In this document: positions 11,113 through 63,929 of the stretch, in pieces
Numbering within the stretch: the first letter of the stretch is position 1
Layout: the number at the start of each line of letters is the position of its first letter
Origin: Candidatus Woesearchaeota archaeon
Lineage (GTDB): Archaea; Nanobdellota; Nanobdellia; Woesearchaeales; UBA10216
NCBI GenBank assembly: GCA_043807015.1
Contig: JAZDGJ010000028.1
Coordinates: forward strand, 1,537 to 65,536
Direction of reading: 5' to 3'
DNA length: 64,000 bases
The notes under the pieces: generated by a model
Databases searched by the model: none
Told to the model about the DNA's origin: nothing
Seen by the model: only the letters and a program-made list of their open reading frames with translations
Program-made: the position numbers and the translations under genes

Positions 11113-11606
11113 GCCTTTTCTTTTATCTTTTTTAATTCATTTTCAAGCAACTTAATTTTATCTCTATTATCCTCTTCGCAGAGGATTTCGCCGCATTCCG
11201 GGCATCTGAATTCAAATTCAAACGCTTTTTCAAAATCAAGCCTGACGCACTTGCGCTGGCACTGTAAATAGCCGCTGGCCCGCTCCCTCTTCAAGCGCTC
11301 TGATATCAGGTCTTCTTTCTGTGTTTTAAGCATTTTGGCAAGGTGCGGCGCATTTTCAGGTGAGAGCGTCCAGTAGTATATGTACCACCCTTTTTTCTTA
11401 TCTTTTTTCCTGATGAATGAAGCGAGATTAAGGCTGTAAAGCTTGTAAAGGGAATTCCTCGTGGCGTTCACATCCCTGTTTATCTTGTCGGCCAGCTTGA
11501 ACTCAGAAAAATTTTTCCTGCCTTTCATAGCCTTGACTACGGGCAGAATGTCTTCCCCCAGCTCTTCCACGACTACTGCCTCTAGCAAATCCAGGTTTTT
11601 TTCCAT
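11109..11606 (-). CDS. tfe: transcription factor E (TFE / TFIIE-alpha homolog), copy 1
   Basis: Winged helix (SEFKLADKINRDVNATRNSLYKLY) plus zinc ribbon (CPECGEILCEED). Confidence 0.75.
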   Translation of the reverse strand: MEKNLDLLEAVVVEELGEDILPVVKAMKGRKNFSEFKLADKINRDVNATRNSLYKLYSLNLASFIRKKDKKKGWYIYYWTLSPENAPHLAKMLKTQKEDLISERLKRERASGYLQCQRKCVRLDFEKAFEFEFRCPECGEILCEEDNRDKIKLLENELKKIKEKA

Positions 11607-11614
11607 ACAGCGCC

Positions 11615-12007
11615 TTATACTTCCTGCAGAAGCTCCTCAAACAGCAATCCCCTGTTTTTTGCAAATTCCAGATTTATGCTGAAGCCCTTTTCTGTTTTGT
11701 TCAGGTCTTCTGGGTTTATGAAAAACCACTTTTCGTTGTTGAACTTAATCGCAACCCAAGGCTCTGCGCCAAATACCGAGGAAAATGCCTTCAAGTCCTC
11801 AAGGTCATCTTGCTGGAAGTACTTTGATTTTGCCTTTGACGTTTTGCACTCTATTGCGAGAACCCTTACTTTGTTGCCGGCTATCAAGTCAGGGCTTGGG
11901 AGCCTCATTGAGCCCGATGCCGGGGTTCTTAATGCCGCCCATCCTTTCTCCCAAAACATGTGGAGCAGGTCCCTTTCTGCGTTAATGCCTTTTGACTTCC
12001 GGTTCAT
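11615..12007 (-). CDS. hjc: Holliday junction resolvase Hjc
   Basis: KGINAERDL...PDLIAG...IECK: PD-(D/E)xK catalytic motifs of archaeal Hjc. Confidence 0.8.
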   Translation of the reverse strand: MNRKSKGINAERDLLHMFWEKGWAALRTPASGSMRLPSPDLIAGNKVRVLAIECKTSKAKSKYFQQDDLEDLKAFSSVFGAEPWVAIKFNNEKWFFINPEDLNKTEKGFSINLEFAKNRGLLFEELLQEV

Positions 12008-12086
12008 ATGTTTTTAGCACCTCAGATATAATATAAACTTTGTGATGTCATAAACCTTAAATAAGCAGCTTCTTTGCTCCCTGACT

Positions 12087-12302
12087 ATGATCAAACGCGG
12101 CATACCCCTTGCGGCAGTTGAAAGGATTATCAAGCAGGCAGATCCTGAAATAAGAATTGCAGACTCTGCAAAGGAGGAAATCAAGGAAGAGCTTGAAAAA
12201 ACTGCCTCTGCCATCGCCGGCAAATCATGGAAGCTGGCTGAGCATGCCAAAAGGCGCACAGTCAAGGAAGAGGATGTTGCATTATCTTCAGAGCAGAGCT
12301 AG
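12087..12302 (+). CDS. archaeal histone (HMf-like histone fold)
   Basis: Histone-fold protein of 71 aa. LPLAAVERIIKQA...IADSAKEEI...LAEHAKRRTVKEEDVALS parallels HMfB. Confidence 0.8.
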   Translation: MIKRGIPLAAVERIIKQADPEIRIADSAKEEIKEELEKTASAIAGKSWKLAEHAKRRTVKEEDVALSSEQS

Positions 12303-13189
12303 ACGCTTATTCTCATAAAATCTTTTGCGCAGAGCGTATTATCAAATATGTTCCGAGCATCTTCGCCCAGCTGGTCCAGATTCTTGTATCTTGCGGAGAA
12401 ATGCGTTAGAATCAGCTGCTTTGCATCTGCGTCATTAGCTATCATTGCCGCATGCTTTGCCGTAAGGTGCTTGTACTCATTTGCCTTCTCTTCCAGATCA
12501 TCAGCATATGTGGCTTCGCAAACCAGTATATCTGCATCTTTCGCCAGCTTCACGCAGTTGCTGTTTAGAGATGTGTCCTCAACAAAAGCCACAATTTTGC
12601 CTTTTTTAATTGTGGTTACATCATCAGCAGCTATTTTTTTCCCTTTCAAAGTTATTGCTTTGCCAGCCTGCAGCTCGCCAAGCAGCGGTCCTGTTGGGAT
12701 TCCAAACTTTTTCACTACATCCATATCCATCTTCCTTTTGTCTTTCTCAACAAACCTGAAGCCTATGCAAGGCACAGAATGGTCAAGAGGCAAGCATTCA
12801 ATGTAAAAATCAGCATTATCCACAAAAACCCCCTTTTCAACCTCAGTTATTTCCGCCTCAAATCGCTCCTCAAAGAAAAACGCCTTTTTTATGTATTCAA
12901 AATGCTTTTTCGTTCCAACTGGTCCGTAAATTTCAAGCTTCTTTGAGTATTCAGATGCGCTCAGTGTCTGTATCAAGCCGGGCAAGCCCAAAACATGGTC
13001 GCCATGCCAGTGGCTGATCAGTATCTTTGTCACCTTTGGCATGGCAATTCCCGCAATCTTCATCTGCCTCTGCGTTCCTTCACCGCAGTCAATCAGTATG
13101 TTTTCAGCCCCATAAGTAAGCAAAAGCGCGCTGTGGTTCCGTTCCTTTGTTGGCACCATTGAGCTTGTGCCCAAAAACAGCAATTCCAT
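12299..13189 (-). CDS. rnz: ribonuclease Z (tRNA 3' endonuclease, metallo-beta-lactamase fold)
   Basis: HWHGDHVLGLPGL motif. ATG at 13189 (MELLFLGTSSMVPT). The upstream Arg-rich ORF-track extension is a GC-rich structured non-coding region. Confidence 0.8.
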   Translation of the reverse strand: MELLFLGTSSMVPTKERNHSALLLTYGAENILIDCGEGTQRQMKIAGIAMPKVTKILISHWHGDHVLGLPGLIQTLSASEYSKKLEIYGPVGTKKHFEYIKKAFFFEERFEAEITEVEKGVFVDNADFYIECLPLDHSVPCIGFRFVEKDKRKMDMDVVKKFGIPTGPLLGELQAGKAITLKGKKIAADDVTTIKKGKIVAFVEDTSLNSNCVKLAKDADILVCEATYADDLEEKANEYKHLTAKHAAMIANDADAKQLILTHFSARYKNLDQLGEDARNIFDNTLCAKDFMRISV

Positions 13190-13360
13190 AAGAAAAAGCA
13201 CTCTCGCAGCGTATTTAATACTTGCGGTGCGTAAGCGGTTAACCTGCAGTATTCGTCGTCGTGGTCCGTGGGGCTTCGCGAAGCGAATGCCCACTTGAAC
13301 GCGCAGACAGAGCGTCTGTCATAGCAAAGCTTTTAAACAACTCTCCACGACTTTGAAGGC

Positions 13361-13894
13361 ATGGGAAAGGAACATTTCAACGCCTATTTTTCAGAAGGAA
13401 TTGTCCTCTCTGAGAATTCAGATGCTGCCCGCGAGTTGTATGAAAAGAGCAGGTATGGTGCCATTAACAAGGAAAACCGGATAGAGCTTTCTCCTATTGA
13501 AACTCTTTACCTCATTGACAAGGGTTGGCTTAGCCTCTATGACGGGAGGAACAAACCCATAGCCCGGGATAAATTCCTGAAGAAGGCGGCAAAGCTTGAG
13601 CCAAAGATTATGGTAAAGTATGCCGTCTTCCGGGACATCCGTGACAGGGGCTACATCATAAAAACAGCGCTCAAGTTCGGCGCAGATTTCCGAATCTATG
13701 ACCGTGGCGTGAAGCCCGGCGAAGACCATGCAAAGTGGATTGTTTACCCTGTTAAGGAGGGCGAGCACCTTACCTGGCATGAGTTTGCTGCCAAGAACAG
13801 GGTTGCGCACTCAACCAAGAAGAGGCTCCTTATCGGCGTTGTCGATGATGAAGGTGATGTCAGCTATTGGGAAGTAAGGTGGATGAGGCCGTAG
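13361..13894 (+). CDS. endA: tRNA-splicing endonuclease EndA
   Basis: C-terminal catalytic domain LKFGADFRIYDRGVKPGEDHAKWIVYPV (catalytic Y/H/K triad region). Confidence 0.8.
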   Translation: MGKEHFNAYFSEGIVLSENSDAARELYEKSRYGAINKENRIELSPIETLYLIDKGWLSLYDGRNKPIARDKFLKKAAKLEPKIMVKYAVFRDIRDRGYIIKTALKFGADFRIYDRGVKPGEDHAKWIVYPVKEGEHLTWHEFAAKNRVAHSTKKRLLIGVVDDEGDVSYWEVRWMRP

Positions 13895-13930
13895 CACAAA
13901 ATATATAAAATTTCTTGAAATCGTGTTCTC

Positions 13931-14800
13931 ATGGAAAAAACAGAACAGGCTCTTGCCATAGTGAGGCAGCGTGGCCCAATAATCCCTTCCCAGATAGCCT
14001 CGGAAATAAAGACAGATATCCTTCTTGCTTCAGCAATACTCTCTGACTTATCATCTAGCGGAAAAATCAAGATTTCTTCGCTGAAAATGGGCGGGTCGCC
14101 CTTCTATTATTGTGAGGGGCAGGAAGAGCTTCTGCAGAATTATCTCAAGTATCTGAATCCCAAGCAGATGGAGGCTTTCAACCTGCTGAAAGCGAGCCAG
14201 ATTCTCAGGGATAAGGAGCTTACGCCTGTGCTTAGAGTTGCCTTGCGCGAAATTAAGGATTTTGCAAAGCAGCTGGAAGTTTCCCTTGACGGCTCAAAGG
14301 AAGTATTCTGGAAATGGTATCTTCTTGGAAAGGACGCGGCTGAATCCATCATAAAGCAAAAGCTCGGCGTTGCAGAGAAAAAAGAGGCAGAGAAGACGGA
14401 AATCCAGATGCCCCTGCCCGAAGCATTGCAGCAGCCTGTAGAGGCGCCGGTTCCGGCGAAGCCTGTAAAAAAAGAAGCCACGCCATCAGTTCCGTCAGGG
14501 GCATTCTTTGAAGAGATATTGAAGTTCTTTGGCGCCAACAGCATCCAAATTCTTGAGCAGAACGCAGTCAAAAAGTCAGAATTTGAGTTCACAATAAAAT
14601 TCCAGACGCCCCTCGGCGAAATGAAGTATTACTGCGCTGCCAAGAGCAAAAAGCGCGTGGATGCAGACGACCTTAGCTCAGCCTTTGCTCGCGGTCAGAT
14701 GAAAAACCTCCCTGTGCTTTTCCTGACACAAGGGGCACTTTCCAAAGACGCAGAAGCGATTGTTGCCAAAGGGCTCAACATAACTGTGAAAAAGATCTGA
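13931..14800 (+). CDS. hypothetical two-domain protein: N-terminal winged-helix, Pro/Ala/Lys linker, C-terminal Mrr-type restriction-endonuclease-fold domain
   Basis: wHTH-like N-terminus (ALAIVRQRGPIIPSQIASEI...SGKIKISS). C-terminus YYCAAKSKKRVD...PVLFLTQGALSKDAEAIVAKGLNI resembles Mrr_cat (QxK ... GifiTTs.F...A...A...I.LIDG). Confidence 0.5.
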   Translation: MEKTEQALAIVRQRGPIIPSQIASEIKTDILLASAILSDLSSSGKIKISSLKMGGSPFYYCEGQEELLQNYLKYLNPKQMEAFNLLKASQILRDKELTPVLRVALREIKDFAKQLEVSLDGSKEVFWKWYLLGKDAAESIIKQKLGVAEKKEAEKTEIQMPLPEALQQPVEAPVPAKPVKKEATPSVPSGAFFEEILKFFGANSIQILEQNAVKKSEFEFTIKFQTPLGEMKYYCAAKSKKRVDADDLSSAFARGQMKNLPVLFLTQGALSKDAEAIVAKGLNITVKKI

Positions 14801-23648: not shown

Positions 23649-23687
23649 GCAGAAACCTTTATATTGCTTCTTTTGTTCTCAGGGATT

Positions 23688-24641
23688 ATGAGCACGTTGT
23701 GGGCGGAGAAGTACAGGCCTTCTGATTTTTCTGAAATAGTCGGCCAGGATGAGATAGTCAGCAGGCTGAAGGCTTTCGTCAAGCAGAAGAACATGCCCCA
23801 TCTTCTGTTTGCAGGTCCTCCTGGAGTGGGTAAGACCAGTGCAGCCTTGGTTGTTGCGAAGAAGCTTTATGGCGAGAGCTGGCGTGAGAATGTTCTTGAG
23901 CTTAATGCTTCTGATGAAAGAGGCATTGATGTGATTCGTGTCAAGGTCAAGGACTTTGCAAGGACAAAGTCAATGGGTGATGCGCCTTTCAAGATTTGCC
24001 TTCTTGACGAGTGCGACTCACTGACAAAGGAAGCCCAGCAAGCCTTGAGAAGAACGATGGAAAATTACTCAAATACCTGCAGGTTCATACTTCTTGCAAA
24101 TTACTCTTCAAAAATCATTGACCCCATACAGAGCAGGTGCGCTGTATTCAGGTTCAAGCTTCTGCCGAAGGAAAGCATATTCAAAATCATTGACGAAATC
24201 ATCAAACATGAAGGGCTGAAGATTGATGAAAAGGCAAAGGAAGCGCTTTACATAGTCAGCGAAGGCGACTGCAGGCGCCTTGAGAATGTTCTCCAGAGCT
24301 CTGCTTCGGTTTCCCAAACCATTACGTCAGAAACAATATACTCTGTCGCGAGCGTTGCAAAACCAAAAGAAATAAAAGAGATAATTTCCTTGGCTTTGAA
24401 TAACAAGTTCATTCCTGCTAGGGAAAAGCTTATAGAAACAATGCTCTCTTACGGGCTTTCAGGGCTTGACATCATAAAGCAGATCCAGAAGGAAGCTGTT
24501 GAGCTTGATGTTGAGTCTTCAAAGAAGATGAAGATAATTGAGAACTGCGCTGAAATAGAGTTCAGGATGGTTGAGGGCGCAGACGAGTTTGTCCAGCTCG
24601 AGGCATTGTTAAGCAGTATAGCGTCCTTAAATGACAAGTGA
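23688..24641 (+). CDS. rfcS: replication factor C small subunit
   Basis: WAEKYRP...LLFAGPPGVGKTS Walker A, DECD Walker B, SRC motif (QSRCAVFRF). ATG 23688. The ORF-track start is TTG. Confidence 0.85.
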   Translation: MSTLWAEKYRPSDFSEIVGQDEIVSRLKAFVKQKNMPHLLFAGPPGVGKTSAALVVAKKLYGESWRENVLELNASDERGIDVIRVKVKDFARTKSMGDAPFKICLLDECDSLTKEAQQALRRTMENYSNTCRFILLANYSSKIIDPIQSRCAVFRFKLLPKESIFKIIDEIIKHEGLKIDEKAKEALYIVSEGDCRRLENVLQSSASVSQTITSETIYSVASVAKPKEIKEIISLALNNKFIPAREKLIETMLSYGLSGLDIIKQIQKEAVELDVESSKKMKIIENCAEIEFRMVEGADEFVQLEALLSSIASLNDK

Positions 24642-26655
24642 AAAAAGAGGGGTTTGGGAGGAGCATGCTTCTAGTGAGAGTCCTTTATCTAGAAACCTTC
24701 AGGACCAAGCCGCTGAAATTCTGAGAAAACAGCTTGACAAGTCGATAAGCGCGCAGGAAAGCATTCATTCAGAGCTGAAAAGCCAGCTCGCACTCAAGGA
24801 AAAAGACATTGAAACCCTGAAGTCAATAATCCTGAGAAAAAATCAGGAGGTTGCAGCCCTTTCAAAAAGCCTGCAGGCAAAAAACGAGACAGACGAATAT
24901 TACGTCAAACGCCTGAAAGAGGCGCTTCTGAAAAAAGATGCCGCCAACCAGCAGATTTTCTCAAGCCTGAGGCAGCAGCTCTCTGCGAAAGACGAGGAAA
25001 TCAGGAAAAAGGGGTTTTCCTCAACAGAATCCAGCAGGGCAAATGAGCAGCTTCTGAAACAGCTGAATGAGCATCTTGCCCAGGCATATGAGCAGATTGA
25101 CCAGCTCAAGACTTTTGTCGCTAATGAGACAGCGCGCTCGGAAAACCTTTCCAATGTCTTTGAAAAAGAGATTGCTGAAAAGGAAGCCATCATCGCAGGG
25201 CTGCAAAAGTCAAAGCTTAATGCCAGCGGCAATTCTGCCCTGGCAGCGCAGTTGGAGCAGTCTGAAAGAAAACTGAAGGAGAAAGAGGCAACCTGCAGGA
25301 ATCTCCAAATGGAGCTTGCAAAGCTGAGATACCATCATGAAGACGTGTCAAGGCAGCTGCAGGAAAAAGACAACATGCAGGATTATCCCGATTATGGAAC
25401 GCAAATAGGCGTCCTTAAGATGAGCCTTGCTGAAAAGGATTCTGAAATAAAGCGCCTTGAGGCAGCAGCATTTGAAGCACACCGCTCCAATGAGAGAATT
25501 GCCCGGCAGCTGAATGCCCAGCTTAGAGAGGCATATGAAGAAATAGACCAGCTCAAGCATTTTGTTACTTCAGAATCTGTTAAATCCTCAGGTCTTGAAG
25601 AGGAGTTTGACAAGCAGCTTGCGGAAAAGGACGCAAGGATAGCTGAGCTTGAACAGAGCCTTAGGGAAAGCTCAAGACCGAAGTCTTCAGGCAGGGAAAC
25701 CGCTGAATTAAAGCAGCTCCTGAGCGTGAAAGAAGAGAGCTCTGCAGCTTTGCAGGCAGACCTGCTGAAGCTTAAAGCCCAGAACACCAACCTTTCAAGA
25801 AAGCTTGAAACCAGCAGAAAGATGATTGCCCAGAGCGAAGAAAATTTTGCAAAGCTGGCTGAGGAGATCAACTCCCAGCACCAGCAGCGAATCAAGGATT
25901 TGATAACGAAAAATTCAGTAAATGAGGCTGCGCTAAGGTCAGAAATGGAGCAGATCAAGGCTGAGATGAAAAAGAAAGACAGCCTCATTGAGGCTGAAAC
26001 CCTTAAGGTTGATGATGCTTTGACCCAGTTCTCTGTCAAGTACCAGCAGCTTCTCAAGCTGAGAAACTCAGAGGGAATGGTTTCTCACGTTGAAGAGATT
26101 GAGAAATCCAGGATTGAAAAAGAAAACATGTCTGAGCTTCTGAAGGACGCAGAGGCAAAGCTTCAGCGCGCAATTGAGAGGGAAGCTGCTGTTGACAGGA
26201 GAGAGCAGATGATTATGAAAGAGCAGGACGCCATAAACAAGCAGCTTGACCTGTTGAACGCAGCAGGCTTTGAAATCGGCAGGACTAAGGATTATCTGAA
26301 GAAGAAGCTTGCCGAAGTTGAGCTGCCTGCGCCTGAAAGCCTGGCTTCTGTGATGGAAGAGTTTTCCACAGAGCACGTTCCTGAAGAGATACGGATGGAA
26401 ATTCCCGCGCCAGAGAAGCTAATGCCTGTGCAGAGGCTAAAACCAGCGGAAAAGCCAAAGCTCTTCCAACCCAAGAAAGAGGAATTCTTCAACGCAAACA
26501 CATATTCTGAGATTGACGAGCTTAAGTCAGTCATTGAGATAGCAACCCAGCAGGGCGAATCCCTTGAAAAGGTAAGGCAGTCGCTTATCGACTCAGGCTA
26601 CTCAAAAGCCAGCATAGAAAAAGCCTTCAGCAGCATGCAGACTGTTAAGCGGTAG
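24631..26655 (+). CDS. large coiled-coil protein with internal ~70-aa tandem-diverged repeats; function unknown
   Basis: 674 aa, almost entirely heptad/charged. Repeat A ...AYEQIDQLKTFVANETARSENLSNVFEKEIAEKEAIIAGLQKS and repeat B ...AYEEIDQLKHFVTSESVKSSGLEEEFDKQLAEKDARIAELEQSL. Start overlaps the rfcS stop by 11 nt. Confidence 0.6.
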   Translation: MTSEKRGVWEEHASSESPLSRNLQDQAAEILRKQLDKSISAQESIHSELKSQLALKEKDIETLKSIILRKNQEVAALSKSLQAKNETDEYYVKRLKEALLKKDAANQQIFSSLRQQLSAKDEEIRKKGFSSTESSRANEQLLKQLNEHLAQAYEQIDQLKTFVANETARSENLSNVFEKEIAEKEAIIAGLQKSKLNASGNSALAAQLEQSERKLKEKEATCRNLQMELAKLRYHHEDVSRQLQEKDNMQDYPDYGTQIGVLKMSLAEKDSEIKRLEAAAFEAHRSNERIARQLNAQLREAYEEIDQLKHFVTSESVKSSGLEEEFDKQLAEKDARIAELEQSLRESSRPKSSGRETAELKQLLSVKEESSAALQADLLKLKAQNTNLSRKLETSRKMIAQSEENFAKLAEEINSQHQQRIKDLITKNSVNEAALRSEMEQIKAEMKKKDSLIEAETLKVDDALTQFSVKYQQLLKLRNSEGMVSHVEEIEKSRIEKENMSELLKDAEAKLQRAIEREAAVDRREQMIMKEQDAINKQLDLLNAAGFEIGRTKDYLKKKLAEVELPAPESLASVMEEFSTEHVPEEIRMEIPAPEKLMPVQRLKPAEKPKLFQPKKEEFFNANTYSEIDELKSVIEIATQQGESLEKVRQSLIDSGYSKASIEKAFSSMQTVKR

Positions 26656-26791: not shown

Positions 26792-27808
26792 TCAGCCGAG
26801 CAGGCGCTGTACAATCAGGCTTGAGGATCTTACCTCGCTGTAGTCGAACAACACTTCGATAAGTACTTCTCTTACAGCATCCACCTGGGCGTTGTTGGCA
26901 ATTTTGCAGCTGACCATAGCATTGCCCTGGTTGTCAAGCCTCACTGCACCCTTGTTCTTTTGATCGCCGCTTGATGACAGGCCATAGCAGGTGATTTTGA
27001 CCCGGTCTTCTGGGGGGGTGGCGGGGTCTTCTGGCACTCCGACAGTTACGTTTACAATGTTCTGGTCACTCACTTTGCTGCCGGCAGTTTGACCGCAGAC
27101 TGCGCCTTCATTGTCTGGTGACCACTTGAATACATTGCCGTTGCCTTTCTTTGATATCCTGAAATTGATGTTAATGGTGTTCCCTCCAGCAAAGCTCTCT
27201 ACAAGCGAATCAACTCCTATCGGCGATGCAGAGCTGAATATCTCCTTTGGACCTGATGCCTCACAAACTCCTGCAACAGTTGAGACGGGGTTCTGCCTGA
27301 GGCAGTATTTCCCGCTTGCCATTGTTTTATACGAATAGCATACATTAGTCTGTATTGGCAGCTCTATATTTCCTGCGCTTAGCGAGCGCTTGAACGCGAG
27401 TTGTTTTCCTTCTGTTTTCGGAATTATCACTTGCGCCGTCATGCCCTGTATTTTATTGCCTGCAGAATCCTTCTTCATCCCAATAATATCATCTTCATTT
27501 GAGTTGCTTAGTTCAGATTGAGCAACGCCAAAGTCCGAAGGGTACAGCCCCGAGATAGTCACATTGGCTTTTTTCTTCGATATGTTTGCCTCTCCGGCGT
27601 TCTCAAGGAGGACAACTATCTGGAATGGGAATTGCCCTCCGTCAGACACCTGTGCCGGAGGGGAATTGTCAAGGAAACTTATAAGCAATCCATTTGTGCC
27701 CCCTATGTAGGGGGTACCCGTTGAAGTTGTTCCGCTATCACCAGTCTGGCATCCTGCCAAAAAAAGAATTGATATTATAACTGCTGTTATTAAGATAAAG
27801 TTTTTCAC
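26792..27808 (-). CDS. secreted lipoprotein LP1 (lipobox LFLAGC), Cys-rich beta-type domain; paralog of LP2
   Basis: MKNFILITAVIISILFLAGCQT signal/lipobox. Six further Cys. GTG start homologous to the LP2 ATG. TATA tttatttaaag about 25 nt upstream. Confidence 0.6.
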   Translation of the reverse strand: MKNFILITAVIISILFLAGCQTGDSGTTSTGTPYIGGTNGLLISFLDNSPPAQVSDGGQFPFQIVVLLENAGEANISKKKANVTISGLYPSDFGVAQSELSNSNEDDIIGMKKDSAGNKIQGMTAQVIIPKTEGKQLAFKRSLSAGNIELPIQTNVCYSYKTMASGKYCLRQNPVSTVAGVCEASGPKEIFSSASPIGVDSLVESFAGGNTININFRISKKGNGNVFKWSPDNEGAVCGQTAGSKVSDQNIVNVTVGVPEDPATPPEDRVKITCYGLSSSGDQKNKGAVRLDNQGNAMVSCKIANNAQVDAVREVLIEVLFDYSEVRSSSLIVQRLLG

Positions 27809-27826
27809 GCACTCTTTTTGGCATCT

Positions 27827-27838
27827 TTTTATTTAAAG
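27827..27838 (-). promoter_or_regulatory. TATA box of LP1 promoter
   Basis: Minus-strand ctttaaataaaa about 25 nt upstream of the start. Confidence 0.45.
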
Positions 27839-27908
27839 CTTTCTGTACATCTATTCTTTAGTTTATTCTAAAAGCATAATTTAAGAAAATAAAAATAACG
27901 ATCAGCCC

Positions 27909-28898
27909 TTAGCCGATCGTTGTTTTCTGCACCAGTAGGCTTGAGGTTCTTACTTCGCTGTAGTCGAAATTCAAGACAATACTTATTTCCCTTACAGCAT
28001 CAACGGGCGGCACTGGGGCGGCAATCTTGCAGCTTACTACAGCATTTCCCTGGTTGTCAAGCCTGACAAATCCAGTGTTTATGGCGGTTGTTCCTAATCC
28101 ATAGCAGGTAACACTACCTGCACCGGCGCCAGGCACATCAACAGTCACTCCTACCACGTTCTGGTTAGTCAAAAGGTTGGTCGCTGTAGTTTGCCCGCAT
28201 ACAGGCGTCGATGGAGAGTTAGGCCTAAACACATTGCCGTTCCCTTTCTTCGATATCCTGAAGTTGAGGTTGACAGCACCGCTGCCTGCATAGCTTTCTA
28301 CAAGCGAATCAACTTGTATTGGTGATGCAGAGCTGAATATTTCTTTAGAGCCGCTTGGTTCGCAAACTCCCTGGGCAGTTGAGGAGGGATTGCTCCTGAG
28401 GCAGTATCTTCCGCTTGCACGCGTTGAATAAGCATAGCATACGTTTGTCTGAATAGGCAGAACCAGGTTGCCTGTGGTGAGTACGCGCTGGAAGTTGAGT
28501 TGGTATGGGGTTGGAGGAATCTGGATCTGTATTGTGCCTCCCTGTATCGTGTTTCCTGCAGGATCTTTCTTCGCACCACTAATTGCCTCTATGCTTGTTG
28601 CCGTCAATTGTGCGCTCGAGACGCCAAAGTCTCCAGGATATAATCCAGAGATAGTTACACTCGCTTGCCCTGCGGGTATGTCATACTCTCCTGCGTTCTC
28701 AAGGAGCACAATTATGTTGAAGGGGAATGTTGCCCCGTCAGACACCTGCGGAGGTGGAGAGTTGTCAAGGAAGCTTATAAGCAATCCATTTGTTCCCCCT
28801 ATGAAGGGGGTGCTTGACGAACTTGTTGTGCTGGTCTGGCATCCTGCTAAAAAAAGGACCAAGATAACTACTGCCGCTATTAAGATAGAGTTTTTCAT
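27909..28898 (-). CDS. secreted lipoprotein LP2, paralog of LP1 (co-linear, about 55-60 percent identical by eye)
   Basis: MKNSILIAAVVILVLFLAGCQT. Shared blocks PFIGGTNGLLISFLDNSPP, ISGLYP.DFGV, NFRISKKGNGNVF, VDAVRE. Own TATA ctatttaaag at about -28. Confidence 0.6.
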   Translation of the reverse strand: MKNSILIAAVVILVLFLAGCQTSTTSSSSTPFIGGTNGLLISFLDNSPPPQVSDGATFPFNIIVLLENAGEYDIPAGQASVTISGLYPGDFGVSSAQLTATSIEAISGAKKDPAGNTIQGGTIQIQIPPTPYQLNFQRVLTTGNLVLPIQTNVCYAYSTRASGRYCLRSNPSSTAQGVCEPSGSKEIFSSASPIQVDSLVESYAGSGAVNLNFRISKKGNGNVFRPNSPSTPVCGQTTATNLLTNQNVVGVTVDVPGAGAGSVTCYGLGTTAINTGFVRLDNQGNAVVSCKIAAPVPPVDAVREISIVLNFDYSEVRTSSLLVQKTTIG

Positions 28899-28920
28899 AT
28901 GCCCTCCTTTTGTATTTTGC

Positions 28921-28930
28921 TATTTAAAGT
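28921..28930 (-). promoter_or_regulatory. TATA box of LP2 promoter
   Basis: Minus-strand ctttaaatag about 28 nt upstream of ATG, followed by ggaggg SD-like. Confidence 0.45.
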
Positions 28931-28941
28931 TTTCTATTTAA

Positions 28942-29940
28942 CTAACTTTGCCCTTCGATTTTAATGATCTTGCTGATAGTCTCCGTGTAACCGTATGAAA
29001 GCGTAAGGTTGATATCTGTTACAAATGAGCCGGTTGTCTCGCCGATTGGGTTGGAGCTTTGGCAGAGGAAATAGTTTTCATCTGAGTTGTCTGTTATTGT
29101 CCTCTTGCCGTCAGTGCCAGGGGCAAAGATATCGCAATCCAAATCATCTTCCCCCAATTTTCCTTTAATATAAACCACATTATACAAGTCTTTTGTCACA
29201 TCGCTTGTGGCGCTGCTGCATGCAGATAATATCTTGCCTGGGTCAACGGTAAGCCCTCTGCCAAGATTCTGGAAAAATATTTTGAATTGAGGGGTTTTCG
29301 TCTTTGTAGCGCCATCACCTTTAACCACAACACTTGTTCCTATTTTTGTGACTGCTATTGGCGCGCCCTGGTCTTTAAGTGTCATTGTTTCCATCTCGCA
29401 AGCCTTAACAGTATTTTTAAGAGTGTATGGCTCAACATCTATGCATGCGCTTGTGCTGAATTTTGTTGTGTAATTATAACATACCGTAGCCATTATGACG
29501 CCATTCAGGCTTGATGGTTGGTCTACTGTTCCTGTCGGGAATAGGGCTGCGGTTTCCTTAACTTCGTACATTAGCATGCCTCCTACATAATTTGCTTCTT
29601 TGCCCTCAAGTGGCTCCTCCCGAGTTCCAATAATAGTGTTGTAATTGAGCGTTTCAAACCTGGGGCTCTCAGCAGTTATTACTAAAAAAGCGCCAACAAC
29701 ATTAACTGCGCCCTTGTTTGTGAGCTTTACAAGTATTGGAAACTCCTGCCCTGCAGTAACCCTCTCCGGCGGTGCATTGAGCGCAAACTCCAACATAACT
29801 CCTTCTGAGCCTGAATAAATAATCTTCCCAGGGTCAAGAACATCTCCCTTATTCTTTCCGCAGCCGGATATTAACAACGTTGCTATAAACAGTAAGCAAA
29901 GCACCTTCAAATTATTGCTACTAGGGCAATTTTCCATCAT
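28942..29940 (-). CDS. secreted lipoprotein LP3 (lipobox LLISGC), divergent family member
   Basis: Signal peptide plus GCGKNK lipobox, same length class and Cys spacing pattern. Only 6 nt downstream of the polytopic gene stop. Confidence 0.55.
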   Translation of the reverse strand: MMENCPSSNNLKVLCLLFIATLLISGCGKNKGDVLDPGKIIYSGSEGVMLEFALNAPPERVTAGQEFPILVKLTNKGAVNVVGAFLVITAESPRFETLNYNTIIGTREEPLEGKEANYVGGMLMYEVKETAALFPTGTVDQPSSLNGVIMATVCYNYTTKFSTSACIDVEPYTLKNTVKACEMETMTLKDQGAPIAVTKIGTSVVVKGDGATKTKTPQFKIFFQNLGRGLTVDPGKILSACSSATSDVTKDLYNVVYIKGKLGEDDLDCDIFAPGTDGKRTITDNSDENYFLCQSSNPIGETTGSFVTDINLTLSYGYTETISKIIKIEGQS

Positions 29941-29946
29941 GACTCA

Positions 29947-32187
29947 TCAGGTTGTCGCGCTATTCTCTGGTCTCACAATTTCTATGCTGGTTGAAGTCTG
30001 AAGCGTGAACTCATATTCTGCGTTAGCGGTTATTGTGACTGGCGTGCAGAGGGCATCTCCCAGAAGCGTTGTTTCCAAAGCACCAACTATATCCTCCAGT
30101 TGGCACCTATAGGAAATTACCTCGCCTTTTTCAGGATTAGATAGAACTTTTGGTCTGCCCGTGTATGTTCCGCCACTCCCGGTAAAATCACAAAGTAGTG
30201 GGTCTGCAGTATTCTTCATTAGAAGTCCAGCGGGCAACGTCACAGTCAAGCCATTGTCCTTTACCTTGCTAATATATCCATTGTGAATTCCTTTCAGCGA
30301 TACAAGCAGCGTAAGAGGTGCTGGTGCCTCTCCAGTCAAACCTAAGCCAACAACTACCGGCATTGTCTTCTGGCTAAGCGTAATGCCGAGAGCTACAGGG
30401 GAGTTTGAAGGCACGTATGTGGCAACTGGCATTGCATATTCCTGAAGCCCGCATTGAGTCAATACACTTTCCCCGCCCTTTTCAGCAGCTATTCGCTTTA
30501 CCTTGTTCACAAATACTGGCGTGTAAGAGGAACTTGTTGCCATATTGTAAGCTGCCCTTGCCCTTACTGAATGGCTTCCGAGAGTCAGGCAGCCACCTAC
30601 ATTGGTATCTGGCAGAGGTTCGCAGACTTCCTTTGAATCAGCAGCCGTTGTGCAACATTCGCTACCCTTTGGGGTTGCACCTTCAGGGCACTTTGCTTCT
30701 TCGCAGGTAGTAGCGGCTATAGGCGGGCTTACTCTAGGGGCAAAAAAAACACACCGGAATTCAGTGCTTTCAGGATAATATAAGAAAAATCCTTTCGTAT
30801 CCCGGCAATCCGTCCACGGATTAATGTCCAATTTATACCTTGTCTTGACGAATTCAAGCTTATCCTGTATTTTTTGTGATTCTGTAATCTGGAAGTCTGC
30901 ATAGACATTTACGGGCGTGCTAGACGTGCTTACTCCAAACGTTTTTTTAGAGTATTCCGAAGGCGCAAGCTCCAGCCCGGTTTGAACCACGGTGGTGTCT
31001 GCCGCCTGTGACGGCGCTATGGTGTTCGCCATGGCTTGGGCTTGTATAGGCACATTTGTCACGATGCTGAACAAGCCCGCAATGCCGGCATACACCTGGT
31101 CCATCACAGGCACGCCGTTGAACAAATTACGACCATTCTCAATTATATCGTTTAACTGCTGTTTGCCTTCTTCGGTTACGAGGGGCGAATTAACTCCTGG
31201 CAAGCTCATTCCTGCGGCTGTTGCTGGACCCCCTGCAATGAACACAAACGCGATCATAAATACAATCACCCTAATAATGGTTGCTCCAACCCTGTTGCTG
31301 GTGTTTTTCAGGGCTCCGATGTAAAATATCCAGGTTATATTGAGGAACTGGTTTGTGAATGGGTAAAGGAAGCTGCCCCAAAGGCTGTCTTTGCTAACGC
31401 CTCCCCATTGGGGCCAATTTTGGCTTAGATGCAGAACATTTGTAAGGTATGCGGTTATGGTGAGGACGATAAATGTCAGTTCAACTCCCAATGCAAACTT
31501 GTTTCTCAAGAACTGCCTTATCTGCGGTATTACCATTGAAAAAACAACGACTACAAGAACTATAGTCCATACGGGCACACCCTCGCCGCTAACAATTCCG
31601 GCAGCAAATACAGGCACGAAGAAAGAAATCATGAAGACATATGTCGCTTGCTTCCCGTATATGCTCCAGCAGTAAAGGAGCATAATGAAGTCTGCCATGA
31701 AAGCCGTCATTGTGTTTGGCGCCCGCAATTTCAGCCAGTAACAAAATACCGCCAACCCGAGTGCCACCAGAAGGCTTATCGTAGAACCCGTGTTTGGGTT
31801 TGCGTTATTGCCGATAACGCCTGCGCCAGACTTTACCTTGCCCCAGGCTTCTGCAAGCTTGCTTTCTCCTTTTGCCTGGTCTTTTTCAGCGTTTGCTTCT
31901 TTTCCAGCTGTCTTGTTTGCTTCATTCCTGTCAGCATCTTCCTGCTTGGCTCTTGCAACTTCTTCCTGCCTTCTTTCTTCCTCTATCGTTGCAAGCCTTT
32001 GCTGTGCTTCAGCATTCTTTTCCTGTGATTCAACCCACCTTTTGAACAGCTCCTTGTCTGTGCTATCGGCAGGGTTTGCAGCTATTCCTGCAAACTGCGG
32101 CGGTCTTTCCTGGACAGCTACAGCTCCCCTTTTAGCCTCTCTTTCTTCGTGGAGTTTTTCTAACCATGCGTCCCAGTCGCGTGTCAT
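29947..32187 (-). CDS. large polytopic membrane protein: charged coiled-coil N-terminal (cytoplasmic) domain, about 7-8 TM helices, about 400-aa Cys-rich extracytoplasmic C-terminal domain
   Basis: N-terminus EERRQEEVARAKQEDADRNEANK. TM block from ISLLVALGLAVFCYW to IRVIVFMIAFVFIAGG. C-terminal region with CEEAKCPEGATPKGSECCTTAADSKEVCEP. Confidence 0.6.
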   Translation of the reverse strand: MTRDWDAWLEKLHEEREAKRGAVAVQERPPQFAGIAANPADSTDKELFKRWVESQEKNAEAQQRLATIEEERRQEEVARAKQEDADRNEANKTAGKEANAEKDQAKGESKLAEAWGKVKSGAGVIGNNANPNTGSTISLLVALGLAVFCYWLKLRAPNTMTAFMADFIMLLYCWSIYGKQATYVFMISFFVPVFAAGIVSGEGVPVWTIVLVVVVFSMVIPQIRQFLRNKFALGVELTFIVLTITAYLTNVLHLSQNWPQWGGVSKDSLWGSFLYPFTNQFLNITWIFYIGALKNTSNRVGATIIRVIVFMIAFVFIAGGPATAAGMSLPGVNSPLVTEEGKQQLNDIIENGRNLFNGVPVMDQVYAGIAGLFSIVTNVPIQAQAMANTIAPSQAADTTVVQTGLELAPSEYSKKTFGVSTSSTPVNVYADFQITESQKIQDKLEFVKTRYKLDINPWTDCRDTKGFFLYYPESTEFRCVFFAPRVSPPIAATTCEEAKCPEGATPKGSECCTTAADSKEVCEPLPDTNVGGCLTLGSHSVRARAAYNMATSSSYTPVFVNKVKRIAAEKGGESVLTQCGLQEYAMPVATYVPSNSPVALGITLSQKTMPVVVGLGLTGEAPAPLTLLVSLKGIHNGYISKVKDNGLTVTLPAGLLMKNTADPLLCDFTGSGGTYTGRPKVLSNPEKGEVISYRCQLEDIVGALETTLLGDALCTPVTITANAEYEFTLQTSTSIEIVRPENSATT

Positions 32188-32350
32188 TTCCTCTTTTTTT
32201 ATTCCTCGCTCTATCCCTGAGATTTCTCATTTATAAACTTGTTTATTTGCTGCAGCTTTGGCAACAGTAAGTGGCAGTCGCGGTAGTAGTCGTTACGGCT
32301 ACTACTAAGATTCGTAGTAGTAGAAGTCGTAGCTTGAATGAAGAACCAGT

Positions 32351-33505
32351 TTATTTAAGCTCAATCCGCAGGTTGATTATCGGCAGGTTTGTCTGCGGCT
32401 CTATCCTTATGAAGTTGGAGTCCTCAACTATAAAGTCGTTTATTGTTTTGTTGTACCTGTCTGACCTTGTGTCAAGGAATGTCCTGATGTTGTTAATGTT
32501 CAGGGCTGCAGCCTTTTTCTCCTTGTCGTCAACAAAGCTCATTGTGAGCACTGCCTTGAGTGTGTTGTTCTTTACAAGTGTGTATCTTGTCTCGTTGACC
32601 TCAAAGAAATATACGGGATAAATGGGTTCGCGAAGCTCTGTCTTTACAACAACCTGGTCTACCAAGTAAGTGCCTTTCTCTGCGAAGAACTTCAGCTCAT
32701 TCCTTCCCTCCCTTAAGTCATCGGGGTCAAGGATTATTTTTTCAGGAGACCCGCAGTCAGGCACCTTTGATGAAATAAGCAGGTCATTAAGGTAAACGCT
32801 GAGCCTTTCAGTCTGCCCTGTTTTGCAGTCAGGCAGGTAAAGCAGGTATGCTTCCTTCAGGTTGCTCTTTTCTTCCCTGCTGATAATGAATGTTGTTGTC
32901 GCTTCCCTGCTTGAGTATGTCTCAACAGTTCCTGTGAGCTTTATATCGCTGAGCTCATAATAGTTTTTCTTCCAGAACATCCAGCCGACAGGCTGGACTT
33001 TGAATTCAATCACATTCTCTTCCTGCAGGTTTTCAAGCCTTATTGGCGTGAATATGCCCTTTGCCTCGCCGCTGAATATTTCATCGCCATTGAGGAGTAT
33101 TGTAAGCATGCCGCTGTGGCGCACTATATTCATGCTCAGCTGCACATTTGTTGTCCTGCCCTTAAGCAGCAGCGGGATTGACCTTGAAAGGGCATCTTTT
33201 TCAGATGAGATGTAGACTGACTGGACCTCTTTCAGGACAGTGTCTTCTGTCCTTGTGAACAGGTTGAATGAGGGCAGCTTGTGCTCAAACTTCAGGTTTT
33301 TTGATTCAAGCAGCGTTCCTGGGTTTTCATCAAGGAGAATTCCCTTGTTTGCAGTCACTGTTTTTGTGGAAACATTCTTGCCGTTGTTGTCACCGATAAG
33401 GTCTTCCCTGACATCAGGCGGCAGGAATAGTATGTAAAGAATCATCACAATTCCTATCATCAGCACTAACAGCCCCGCACTGGACCCTGACTGCGCCTTT
33501 TTCAT
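32351..33505 (-). CDS. bitopic (N-terminal signal-anchor) extracytoplasmic protein, first gene of surface cluster
   Basis: ATG 33505 (MKKAQSGSSAGLLVLMIGIVMILYILFL) with TATA atttatatat at about -30. The upstream ORF-track extension is rejected. Confidence 0.5.
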   Translation of the reverse strand: MKKAQSGSSAGLLVLMIGIVMILYILFLPPDVREDLIGDNNGKNVSTKTVTANKGILLDENPGTLLESKNLKFEHKLPSFNLFTRTEDTVLKEVQSVYISSEKDALSRSIPLLLKGRTTNVQLSMNIVRHSGMLTILLNGDEIFSGEAKGIFTPIRLENLQEENVIEFKVQPVGWMFWKKNYYELSDIKLTGTVETYSSREATTTFIISREEKSNLKEAYLLYLPDCKTGQTERLSVYLNDLLISSKVPDCGSPEKIILDPDDLREGRNELKFFAEKGTYLVDQVVVKTELREPIYPVYFFEVNETRYTLVKNNTLKAVLTMSFVDDKEKKAAALNINNIRTFLDTRSDRYNKTINDFIVEDSNFIRIEPQTNLPIINLRIELK

Positions 33506-33559
33506 GCAGTTACTTTTAACAGTTAGATATATAAATGCTTTTCTCTTTTCACAGTGGTT

Positions 33560-63242: not shown

Positions 63243-63929
63243 TTAATCGCGCTTGAGCTTTTTAAACTCTTCGCTTAATCTGCTCCTAAGACCTTCCTCA
63301 TGCCCCGCTCCGACAACCGCCACTATTTTCTTGCCCTGCTCAACTCTGCTAATCTCAATAAGGTTCTTTGCCATTATCTCGTCCCTTTCAGCAACCAACA
63401 CCCGATAGATGCTTGGATAGCGCCTCTTCATGTAATTCATAACTCCCGTTATTACTTCAGAAGGGGGCACCTTTGCCAGGTCAAACTTGTTGAGCTCCAT
63501 TACTTCTCCTCTGCCGAGCAATCCGTTGAAAAAATCAGCGGCAAACCTGAACTTTTCCCTCCAGGTGAGGGCTTTTGTCAGCCTTTGGACCGTTACCTCA
63601 ATCCTTCTGTCTATCAGCGCAATTTTTGCTCCGGAATCCCGTGCAGCCATCACAGCTGCCTTCATCTCTGCGCCAGGCATCACGCCAACCATCCTGCCTA
63701 TCTTTTGCTGCAGAATCCTCGCTATGGTAAAGAACAGGTAGCTTGCTATGCCTATCTTGAATATTGCAGAAATTGGGATTGAGCGTTGCTTCTGGAAAAG
63801 CCCCATGAGCCTGTTCGGGTCAAGCTCCACAGCGACTATCTCAGGCTTCTCTTCAGCTATAGTGCGCTTTACCCTTTCAACGCTTTCCTTTGCAACGTGG
63901 GAAGTGCTGACGATGATTATGTTTTCCAT
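63243..63929 (-). CDS. TraB/PrgY-family protein
   Basis: IIIVSTSHVAKESVERV...EKPEIVAVELD matches the TraB family N-terminal signature. Confidence 0.65.
   Translation of the reverse strand: MENIIIVSTSHVAKESVERVKRTIAEEKPEIVAVELDPNRLMGLFQKQRSIPISAIFKIGIASYLFFTIARILQQKIGRMVGVMPGAEMKAAVMAARDSGAKIALIDRRIEVTVQRLTKALTWREKFRFAADFFNGLLGRGEVMELNKFDLAKVPPSEVITGVMNYMKRRYPSIYRVLVAERDEIMAKNLIEISRVEQGKKIVAVVGAGHEEGLRSRLSEEFKKLKRD

Follow-up and report, generated by a model that had tools for sequence, protein, structure and literature searches.

Few groups of uncultured archaea are as widespread as the Woesearchaeota. A role in binding or degrading bacterial walls has been proposed for large extracellular murein-like transglycosylases that are specific to Woesearchaeota and Pacearchaeota (PMC8204110; PMC9723730; PMC12352652), and their family belongs to a module of 51 mostly unknown families (PMC8204110). 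In earlier genome surveys, single "large murein transglycosylase" proteins had been noted, as had a set of hypothetical families confined to the lineage, but no connection was drawn between the two. Here, we analyzed a 64-kb stretch of DNA from a Candidatus Woesearchaeota genome (the window, which always means this whole stretch) and describe a minus-strand cluster of five genes encoding a signal-anchored protein (A), a polytopic membrane protein (B), and three lipoproteins (LP3, LP2, and LP1). Neither the five-gene cluster nor the A and LP partners are mentioned in the three studies cited above. Our sequence comparisons place transglycosylase domains on the B protein of an order-conserved five-gene surface module, beside a putative lectin-like protein and three ancient lipoprotein paralogs, and the module is thereby defined as a candidate cell-contact apparatus of Woesearchaeota. 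We tentatively favor the reading that the cluster builds a lineage-specific surface assembly, which would bind glycans of a partner cell's wall and would be armed with peptidoglycan hydrolases in some lineages; its probability, in our judgment, falls somewhat short of even.

Judged by their description, the murein-like transglycosylases (fam00969 in PMC8204110; GH23 in Vigneron et al. 2022, PMC9723730) can be likened to those B orthologs that carry a lytic transglycosylase (SLT) segment. Both are membrane anchored and extracellular, occur in the same lineages, and contain an SLT/GH23-like domain. However, the SLT segment of the B orthologs is an add-on to a conserved, unannotated core, and the B protein of the window lacks it. 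A second group of described systems with similar traits is formed by the surface layers (S-layers), such as SlaA/SlaB of Sulfolobales, the lipid-anchored Haloferax glycoprotein, and the Nanobdella candidate MJ1_0160, which likewise present beta sandwiches outward, are membrane anchored, and are lineage specific and fast evolving. In contrast to these, the anchors of the cluster are N-terminal lipoboxes and a polytopic protein instead of a C-terminal transmembrane segment or PGF-CTERM, and the LPs are small (about 33 kDa), sequon-poor paralogs that match S-layer proteins neither in sequence nor in whole-chain fold. The five proteins contain no S-layer or CARDB domain, and each has 0 to 4 sequons. 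Overall, the cluster lies outside the described families and systems; its component folds are common, and its function is inferred.

A five-gene cluster of conserved order

The five co-directional open reading frames (ORFs) span positions 26792 to 33505 of the window in the order A, B, LP3, LP2, LP1, and all of them were found where the initial annotation of this DNA had proposed a five-gene minus-strand cluster. Gene A (32351 to 33505, minus strand, as for all five) encodes 384 amino acids (aa) counted from the ATG at 33505, and its longest ORF reaches 33589. It is followed by B (29947 to 32187), which encodes a polytopic protein of 746 aa, and by the genes for the lipobox proteins LP3 (28942 to 29940; 332 aa), LP2 (27909 to 28898; 329 aa), and LP1 (26792 to 27808; 338 aa). 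The five products are on record as identical proteins V1702_02670 to V1702_02690 of a Candidatus Woesearchaeota metagenome-assembled genome (MAG), on a 75.6-kb contig. Between the stop codon of B and the start of LP3 there is a spacer of 6 nucleotides (nt), as had been reported, and LP3 is probably cotranslated with B.

A is the best conserved member of the cluster, with 59 homologs of 28 to 82% identity, all from Woesearchaeota or Nanoarchaeota. B yielded 2 relatives by a word-indexed search and 6 by an exhaustive HMMER profile scan of 1.84 billion representative proteins, the six being all of the same lineage type. Since B evolves too fast for sequence searches, its positional orthologs were recovered via protein A. 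A pattern scan with A (12-sequence alignment), taking one genome per GTDB species, gave 80 loci, all from Woesearchaeota or Nanoarchaeia MAGs, and a profile search of these loci provided the 60 positional orthologs of B used for its alignment.

The initial annotation had suggested looking for the same arrangement in related archaea. ORF profile searches revealed the order Pelota(-) / A B LP LP (LP)(+) ... RFC(-) in practically all loci whose downstream DNA extends far enough, so that the A-B-LP order is kept in about 55 species-level loci, and independent metagenome contigs show it too. The A proteins of these syntenic species are only 27 to 68% identical. Three LP genes are present in 29 of the 33 loci that are complete to RFC and two in the other 4, and the spacer between B and the first LP has a median of -2 nt and measures at most 60 nt in 57 of 58 loci. 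When the LPs were compared across genomes, the best match of a protein at position 1, 2, or 3 was found at the same position in 29 of 29, 28 of 29, and 29 of 29 cases, respectively, which indicates three ancient subfamilies (alpha, beta, and gamma) in fixed order, with alpha always next to B.

The hydrolase domains were found on the B protein. A local hidden Markov model (HMM) detected a C-terminal SLT segment in 13 of 61 B orthologs (about one fifth) and matched no other ORF in the 80 loci. The Pfam family SLT (PF01464) scored above the cut-off in the B orthologs of loci L041, L084, L064, L070, and L040, with weaker matches in L077, L083, L045, L027, L011, and L010. In L080, the protein at the B position (11201 to 14746; 1181 aa) carries a Peptidase_M23 domain (66 bits) and an SLT-like segment; the B profiles failed to detect this protein because of its highly divergent core. 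The segments show the catalytic Glu-Ser/Thr, a G-[LVM]-MQI motif and, where present, AYNxG; these features were seen in L041, L084, L064, L070, L040, and L088. The SLT segment is attached to the B core at its C-terminal side, beyond the last conserved strand. The independent contigs L088 and L089 carry A, then B with SLT, three LPs, and RFC. Other additions to B orthologs are fn3 and beta/gamma-crystallin domains. In the A tree, orthologs with SLT occur at scattered positions, among them near relatives of the window cluster (L010, L011, L027, and L080); the window and L008 are without SLT.

Properties of the encoded proteins

Judging from their sequences, each of the five proteins is directed to the outer side of the membrane: A through its signal anchor, B through its polytopic anchor, and the LPs through their lipoboxes. 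The signal anchor, the lipobox, and conserved Cys pairs support this surface location. Scans of the five window proteins against Pfam, NCBIfam, and PHROGs gave no significant match, and sequence and profile searches of the PDB with the A, B, and LP families gave none. The initial annotation had recognized no known family in any member, and the Pfam, NCBIfam, PHROGs, and PDB profiles agree with it; nor did the Pfam, NCBIfam, and PHROGs scans show any ATPase, pilin, or sortase signature among the five, in line with what had been claimed.

The N-terminal 125 aa of B are cytoplasmic and charged (23 Lys plus Arg, 27 Asp plus Glu), which bears out the charged head described previously, and are followed by about 6 to 7 hydrophobic segments between aa 135 and 330. 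The polytopic nature of B is therefore upheld, and the earlier count of about 7 to 8 transmembrane helices is lowered to nearer 6 to 7. The C-terminal region comprises about 415 aa, and the whole protein has 14 Cys. The Cys-rich string CEEAKCPEGATPKGSECCTTAADSKEVCEP, by which the ectodomain had been characterized, was located at aa 495 to 524. Within the ectodomain (about aa 400 to 746), four Cys are invariant in the family (C479, C511, C666, and C695), and the window protein has the motifs SNSPVALG and, near the C terminus, Y-x-F. Across the 60 orthologs, the ectodomain is marked by these four Cys, by invariant Gly and Pro, and by the motifs FnFxT, TNGPVxIG, N...GxI, and YxY, and no conserved residues of catalytic type were found in this alignment. 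The transmembrane block is poorly conserved in the same orthologs, with at most about 4 positions at which one residue is shared by 55% or more of the sequences, and the number of transmembrane segments per ortholog ranges from 4 to 7.

The LP-type motifs CYxYxT, GAPVxVT, FxIxxNxGxG, and YxY recur in the same order in the B ectodomain. An hhalign comparison of 147 LPs with 60 B C-terminal regions was colinear over 281 columns (E 0.016), and the LP profile gave several matches to B ectodomains with E values of 3e-5 to 5e-3 in a small sequence set. These similarities suggest that the B ectodomain is a probable fourth paralog of the LP domain.

Lipoproteins are reported to be prevalent in DPANN archaea, in which AliA (arCOG02177) has been reported to be present (PMC12462473); lipidation in archaea depends on AliA/AliB. 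The hydrophobic leaders of the window LPs terminate in LAGC (LFLAGC in LP2 and LP1) or in ISGC (LLISGC in LP3), and all three fit the lipobox pattern of a Sec-type leader ending in [LVI][ASTVI][GAS]C. In the LP family, a Cys directly follows the hydrophobic leader in 155 of 155 members, with the strict lipobox in 139 of them; among the 16 outside the strict motif, x-x-[GAS]-C after the hydrophobic region was seen in the 12 inspected. Six Cys are conserved across the family in the mature part, consistent with the 6 to 7 conserved Cys per lipoprotein counted before. A family search gave 20 matches from the same lineages as A (Woesearchaeota/Nanoarchaeota).

Identity between LP1 and LP2 is 63%, and LP3 shares about 21% with each of them (E 1e-11). 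LP3 scored 224 bits with the alpha subfamily, 178 with beta, and 101 with gamma, and LP1 scored 248 bits with gamma, 103 with beta, and 88 with alpha. Thus, the window holds an alpha protein (LP3) and two gamma proteins (LP2 and a second copy, LP1), and by these comparisons LP1/LP2 is a recent, lineage-specific duplication within gamma. The three tandem lipobox genes of the initial annotation are real, but LP1 and LP2 are not separate ancient paralogs. As read from the subfamily assignments, the window lineage lost beta and then duplicated gamma; beta is lost also in L008, L011 to L013, and L018 to L024. In L002 and L003, large Cys-rich secreted proteins (516 and 888 aa) are encoded on the opposite strand in place of the lost beta lipoprotein.

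The structure model of LP2 (21 homologs) had a predicted local distance difference test value (pLDDT) of 87.4 and a predicted template modeling score (pTM) of 0.81. It is all beta, with very long strands at aa 145 to 167 and 301 to 324, and its helices are confined to the leader and two stretches of 4 residues. The mature part of LP2, the sole LP modeled, is predicted to be a two-lobed, disulfide-rich beta sandwich. A fold search with the model gave no whole-chain match, and viral models of BFVD reached a template modeling score of 0.24 at most. A Pfam search of 21 LP family members gave no consistent match, with a weak CARDB hit in 1 of the 21 (E 0.029). LP homologs of 590 to 1028 aa occur in L036, L039, L046, L056, and L057.

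Protein A has a single N-terminal hydrophobic helix (aa 10 to 28 by hydropathy), as expected for the bitopic, signal-anchored protein that had been described, although the length is 384 aa from the ATG. Its homologs share an N terminus of [KR][KR][GA]Q, a Gly/Ala-rich linker, and a highly conserved transmembrane helix ending in LYILFLPPxxR, and 5 to 14 polar residues lie between [KR][KR][GA]Q and the hydrophobic stretch in all 59 of them. The ectodomain of about 330 aa is all beta and has one conserved Cys pair (C227 and C251); this pair and six Asn outside sequons are invariant in the family. In the AlphaFold model (39 homologs; pLDDT 85.4, pTM 0.49), the transmembrane helix is followed by tandem beta domains, and the ectodomain is predicted to consist of tandem jelly rolls of the carbohydrate-binding-module (CBM) or galactose-binding-like type. 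Pfam searches of 39 family members gave no consistent match and no CBM family, with BcsB in 1 of the 39 (E 0.015).

The resemblance of A to BcsB (PF03170), a membrane-anchored periplasmic subunit of the cellulose synthase of bacteria, and to the jelly-roll modules CBM6/35/36, GH2 sugar-binding, and PNGase F is limited to one domain. In addition, the anchor of BcsB is C-terminal, whereas that of A is N-terminal, and B has no glycosyltransferase domain; tests for BcsB membership and for a BcsA-type glycosyltransferase pairing were both negative. Class II fusogens (HAP2 and archaeal Fsx1) were considered and rejected, as the three-domain elongated fold over the whole ectodomain was not found. Longer A homologs of about 560 to 660 aa occur in several lineages (e.g., L046, L051, L056, L059, L064, L078, and L080). 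The 150 to 700 additional residues of the long A and LP orthologs had no Pfam match except fn3 (L036) and a weak GH2 sugar-binding match (L080). A solitary A homolog with no B or LP genes was observed in L006 (1 to 11188 of a 1.1-Mb contig), directly beside an operon for an A/V-type ATPase whose catalytic subunit contains an intein, with Pelota 2.6 kb beyond.

Candidate functions of the cluster

In the surface assembly that we favor, the cluster would be inherited vertically in Woesearchaeota (class Nanoarchaeia), and its products would be exposed on the outside of the cytoplasmic membrane. Four beta-rich and probably related ectodomains (those of B and of LP alpha, beta, and gamma) may join with A in one hetero-oligomeric structure, in which B would be the membrane platform and A the arm that binds a polysaccharide ligand. 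Such an assembly could dock the archaeon onto the wall of another cell, and onto bacterial peptidoglycan where hydrolase modules are present. The window cluster, with alpha, gamma, and gamma' and no SLT, would represent an unarmed version acting as an adhesion or scaffold module, and wall cutting in this lineage would be supplied elsewhere or be absent. Among known arrangements, the cluster would work most like a membrane-anchored adhesin/hydrolase platform. A stronger version holds that it is a conserved Woesearchaeota docking machine with A as a lectin-like arm, which breaches bacterial peptidoglycan where it is armed with SLT or M23; this we regard as rather unlikely. If true, it would amount to a previously undescribed archaeal apparatus for inter-domain episymbiosis or predation. 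The wall-binding reading, if correct, would also favor bacteria over archaea as hosts of many Woesearchaeota and would establish a new kind of surface machine in archaea.

Several observations weigh against this reading. The window B has no hydrolase domain by Pfam, and the local SLT HMM matches no ORF in the 64-kb window; about 80% of the B orthologs are likewise without a hydrolase domain. The SLT fusion may show merely that B is a convenient surface anchor. Strict conservation beside housekeeping genes, in organisms with presumably diverse partners, suits a housekeeping envelope role no less than contact with a host. Moreover, the statistics for homology between the B ectodomain and the LPs are marginal, and two earlier hhalign runs with shallow alignments gave no B-LP match.

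The envelope role just mentioned would have the LPs and the B ectodomain form or anchor the archaeon's own coat, as an S-layer or a sub-S-layer scaffold, with A as a stalk and the hydrolases as opportunistic cargo. We give this explanation limited credence. Several points agree with it: the cluster is near universal and fixed in order amid MCM, PolD, Cdc6, RFC, Pelota, SecY, and ribosomal proteins; LP1 and LP2 have TATA-like elements of their own, with GGAGGG before the LP2 ATG; and the conserved residues are structural (Cys, Gly, and Pro), not catalytic. Archaeal S-layer proteins are, moreover, typically immunoglobulin-like beta sandwiches with no sequence homology between lineages (bioRxiv 10.1101/2023.10.27.564410). 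However, the subunits of the cluster are small, about 33 kDa, and beyond the weak CARDB hit in 1 of 21 LP family members there is no S-layer or CARDB match in Pfam. S-layer proteins of archaea are usually heavily glycosylated, whereas N-glycosylation sequons are few here, with 0 in LP2, 0 in the B ectodomain, and 2 to 4 in the others. Separately annotated S-layer genes are already among the top expressed in Woesearchaeal transcriptomes (PMC11606122), and the hydrolase modules, which in the 80 loci examined were found on B orthologs and on no other ORF, also speak against a coat. If the cluster is a structural coat instead of a contact apparatus, long-missing envelope proteins of Woesearchaeota would have been identified.

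An uptake or transport system, in which B would be a membrane channel and the LPs and A would pick up lipid, glycan fragments, or DNA as a substrate and pass it to B, appears improbable. DPANN archaea must import many metabolites and lipids, polytopic B is tightly coupled to lipoprotein genes, and the architecture superficially resembles binding-protein-dependent systems or the Lpt bridges, whose parts list of bitopic LptC, polytopic LptF/G with a beta-jellyroll ectodomain, and lipoprotein LptE is formally similar. Yet the transmembrane block is the least conserved part of B and varies from 4 to 7 segments, which is unexpected for the core of a channel or transporter, and neither the window nor any of the syntenic loci has a permease or ATPase gene within or beside the cluster. 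Neither an OstA/LptA-type beta-jellyroll nor an associated ABC ATPase was found. ABC substrate-binding lipoproteins are similarly tandem, lipobox-anchored, and extracytoplasmic, but LP2 is all beta, unlike their alpha/beta periplasmic-binding-protein fold, and no substrate-binding family appeared in the Pfam and NCBIfam scans; this candidate was rejected. Quite doubtful, too, is an accessory role for a type IV pilus or archaellum, with A as a pilin-like protein bearing a class III signal and the LPs as anchoring or tip proteins. The [KR][KR][GA]Q and hydrophobic helix of A resemble prepilin signals, which invites comparison with archaeal type IV filaments and the Sulfolobus bindosome, and one gamma-type LP homolog begins 8 nt after the last gene of a pilus- or archaellum-like operon in L004/L005. 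Nevertheless, the motif in A does not abut the hydrophobic core, since the variable polar linker of 5 to 14 residues intervenes, unlike in class III signals; genes for a pilin, a T2SSE ATPase, a FlaJ/TadC platform, or a prepilin peptidase are missing from the cluster, both in the window and in the roughly 55 loci that share its order; and the LP gene of L004 also adjoins RFC, so it may hold the ancestral position with the pilus operon inserted alongside. Finally, that unrelated fast-evolving surface-protein genes became neighbors by chance is effectively excluded. In favor of chance stand the separate TATA-like elements of A, B, LP2, and LP1 and, in some genomes, the presence of toxin-antitoxin modules and other genes within the cluster. 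Against it, at least 55 species with divergent A proteins preserve the arrangement and direction of the genes, the spacer between B and LP alpha stays short in nearly every locus, and the LP subfamilies hold their positions.

The initial annotation had named two outcomes that would speak against it, placement of the members in known families (for example ABC substrate-binding proteins) and a lack of conserved synteny; both were looked for as described above, and neither turned up. Taken together, the scaffold, attachment, or uptake apparatus that the initial annotation had envisaged fares unevenly: attachment gains from the hydrolase fusions of B and the CBM-like A, and uptake loses by the variable transmembrane block and the lack of a linked ATPase.

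Control elements and genomic neighborhood

Several putative promoters were read from the sequence, all on the minus strand. The TATA-like element ATTTATATAT (33527 to 33536) lies within the 48 nt that separate the divergent genes A and Pelota, at a distance of 21 nt from the A start, and TTTATAAAT (32229 to 32237) lies 41 nt upstream of the B start. LP2 and LP1 are preceded by CTTTAAATA at 28921 to 28929 and 27830 to 27838, respectively, 22 to 24 nt 5' of their starts; the two elements, described before as near identical, are in fact identical. This 9-mer has 5 copies in the 64-kb window against 0.7 expected. Upstream of LP2, it is followed by GGAGGG a short way ahead of the LP2 ATG. Immediately 3' of the LP2 stop, the oligo-T tract TTATTTTTATTTT (27885 to 27897) is a possible archaeal transcription terminator that would part the LP2 and LP1 transcripts. 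The A-B spacer contains a perfect 9-bp inverted repeat, CTACTACTA-N7-TAGTAGTAG (32300 to 32325), just 3' of the A stop. A stable hairpin formed by CTACTACTA and TAGTAGTAG was rejected, its stability being not above that of shuffled sequence (z -0.39), and Rfam and tRNA scans of the window gave no matches.

The window is a core information-processing region, with genes for MCM with an intein, PolD, Cdc6/Orc1, FEN1, PAN, the RFC small subunit, and Pelota, as well as acetyl-CoA synthetase, PheRS, SecY, a ribosomal-protein operon, primase, and Hef. The cluster is flanked by Pelota on one side and by RFC and an overlapping coiled-coil gene on the other. The latter (24631 to 26655, plus strand) encodes a 674-aa coiled-coil protein without a Pfam family, overlaps the RFC small subunit gene (23664 to 24641) by 11 nt, and appears to be cotranscribed with it. 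A coiled-coil gene occurs at the same place in many Woesearchaeal loci (303 to 966 aa, convergent with the last LP gene), and its position marks it as an unannotated, conserved partner of RFC. This protein was considered as a sixth component of the cluster and assigned to the RFC unit instead, given its opposite strand, its 11-nt overlap with RFC, and its detection in 13 loci only.

Several of the other loci show local peculiarities. L002 (4484 to 5211 and 11189 to 11999) and L003 (3533 to 4131 and 11135 to 11934) carry toxin-antitoxin pairs (MazE/PIN, MazE/PemK, and UPF0175/DUF3368) at two sites, one separating A from B and one beyond the final LP gene. In L004/L005 (4040 to 11116), 8 nt separate the gene for the gamma-type LP homolog (371 aa) from the preceding 98-aa gene with two transmembrane segments, which closes an operon for archaellin-type pilins, KaiC-like and T2SSE ATPases, and a platform protein of the FlaJ/TadC type; the operon adjoins RFC, and no A or B gene is in view. 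Many of the record titles of L014, L017, L021, L025, L027, L057, and others read "uncultured Methanosarcinales archaeon," and one reads "Alphaproteobacteria bacterium"; MAGs under such titles are probably mislabeled or contaminated bins.

At the ends of the window, the MCM helicase gene (8 to 2581, plus strand) is split by an intein with a LAGLIDADG homing-endonuclease domain, and its ORF extends past the window start. A TraB/PrgY/GumN protein of the Tiki superfamily is encoded at 63243 to 63929 on the minus strand, and a TraB-family gene is also found near the cluster in L007. The related arCOG02142 is listed as a membrane-associated metalloprotease among the top-scoring arCOGs of a search for enzymes that lipidate archaeal lipoproteins (PMC12462473).

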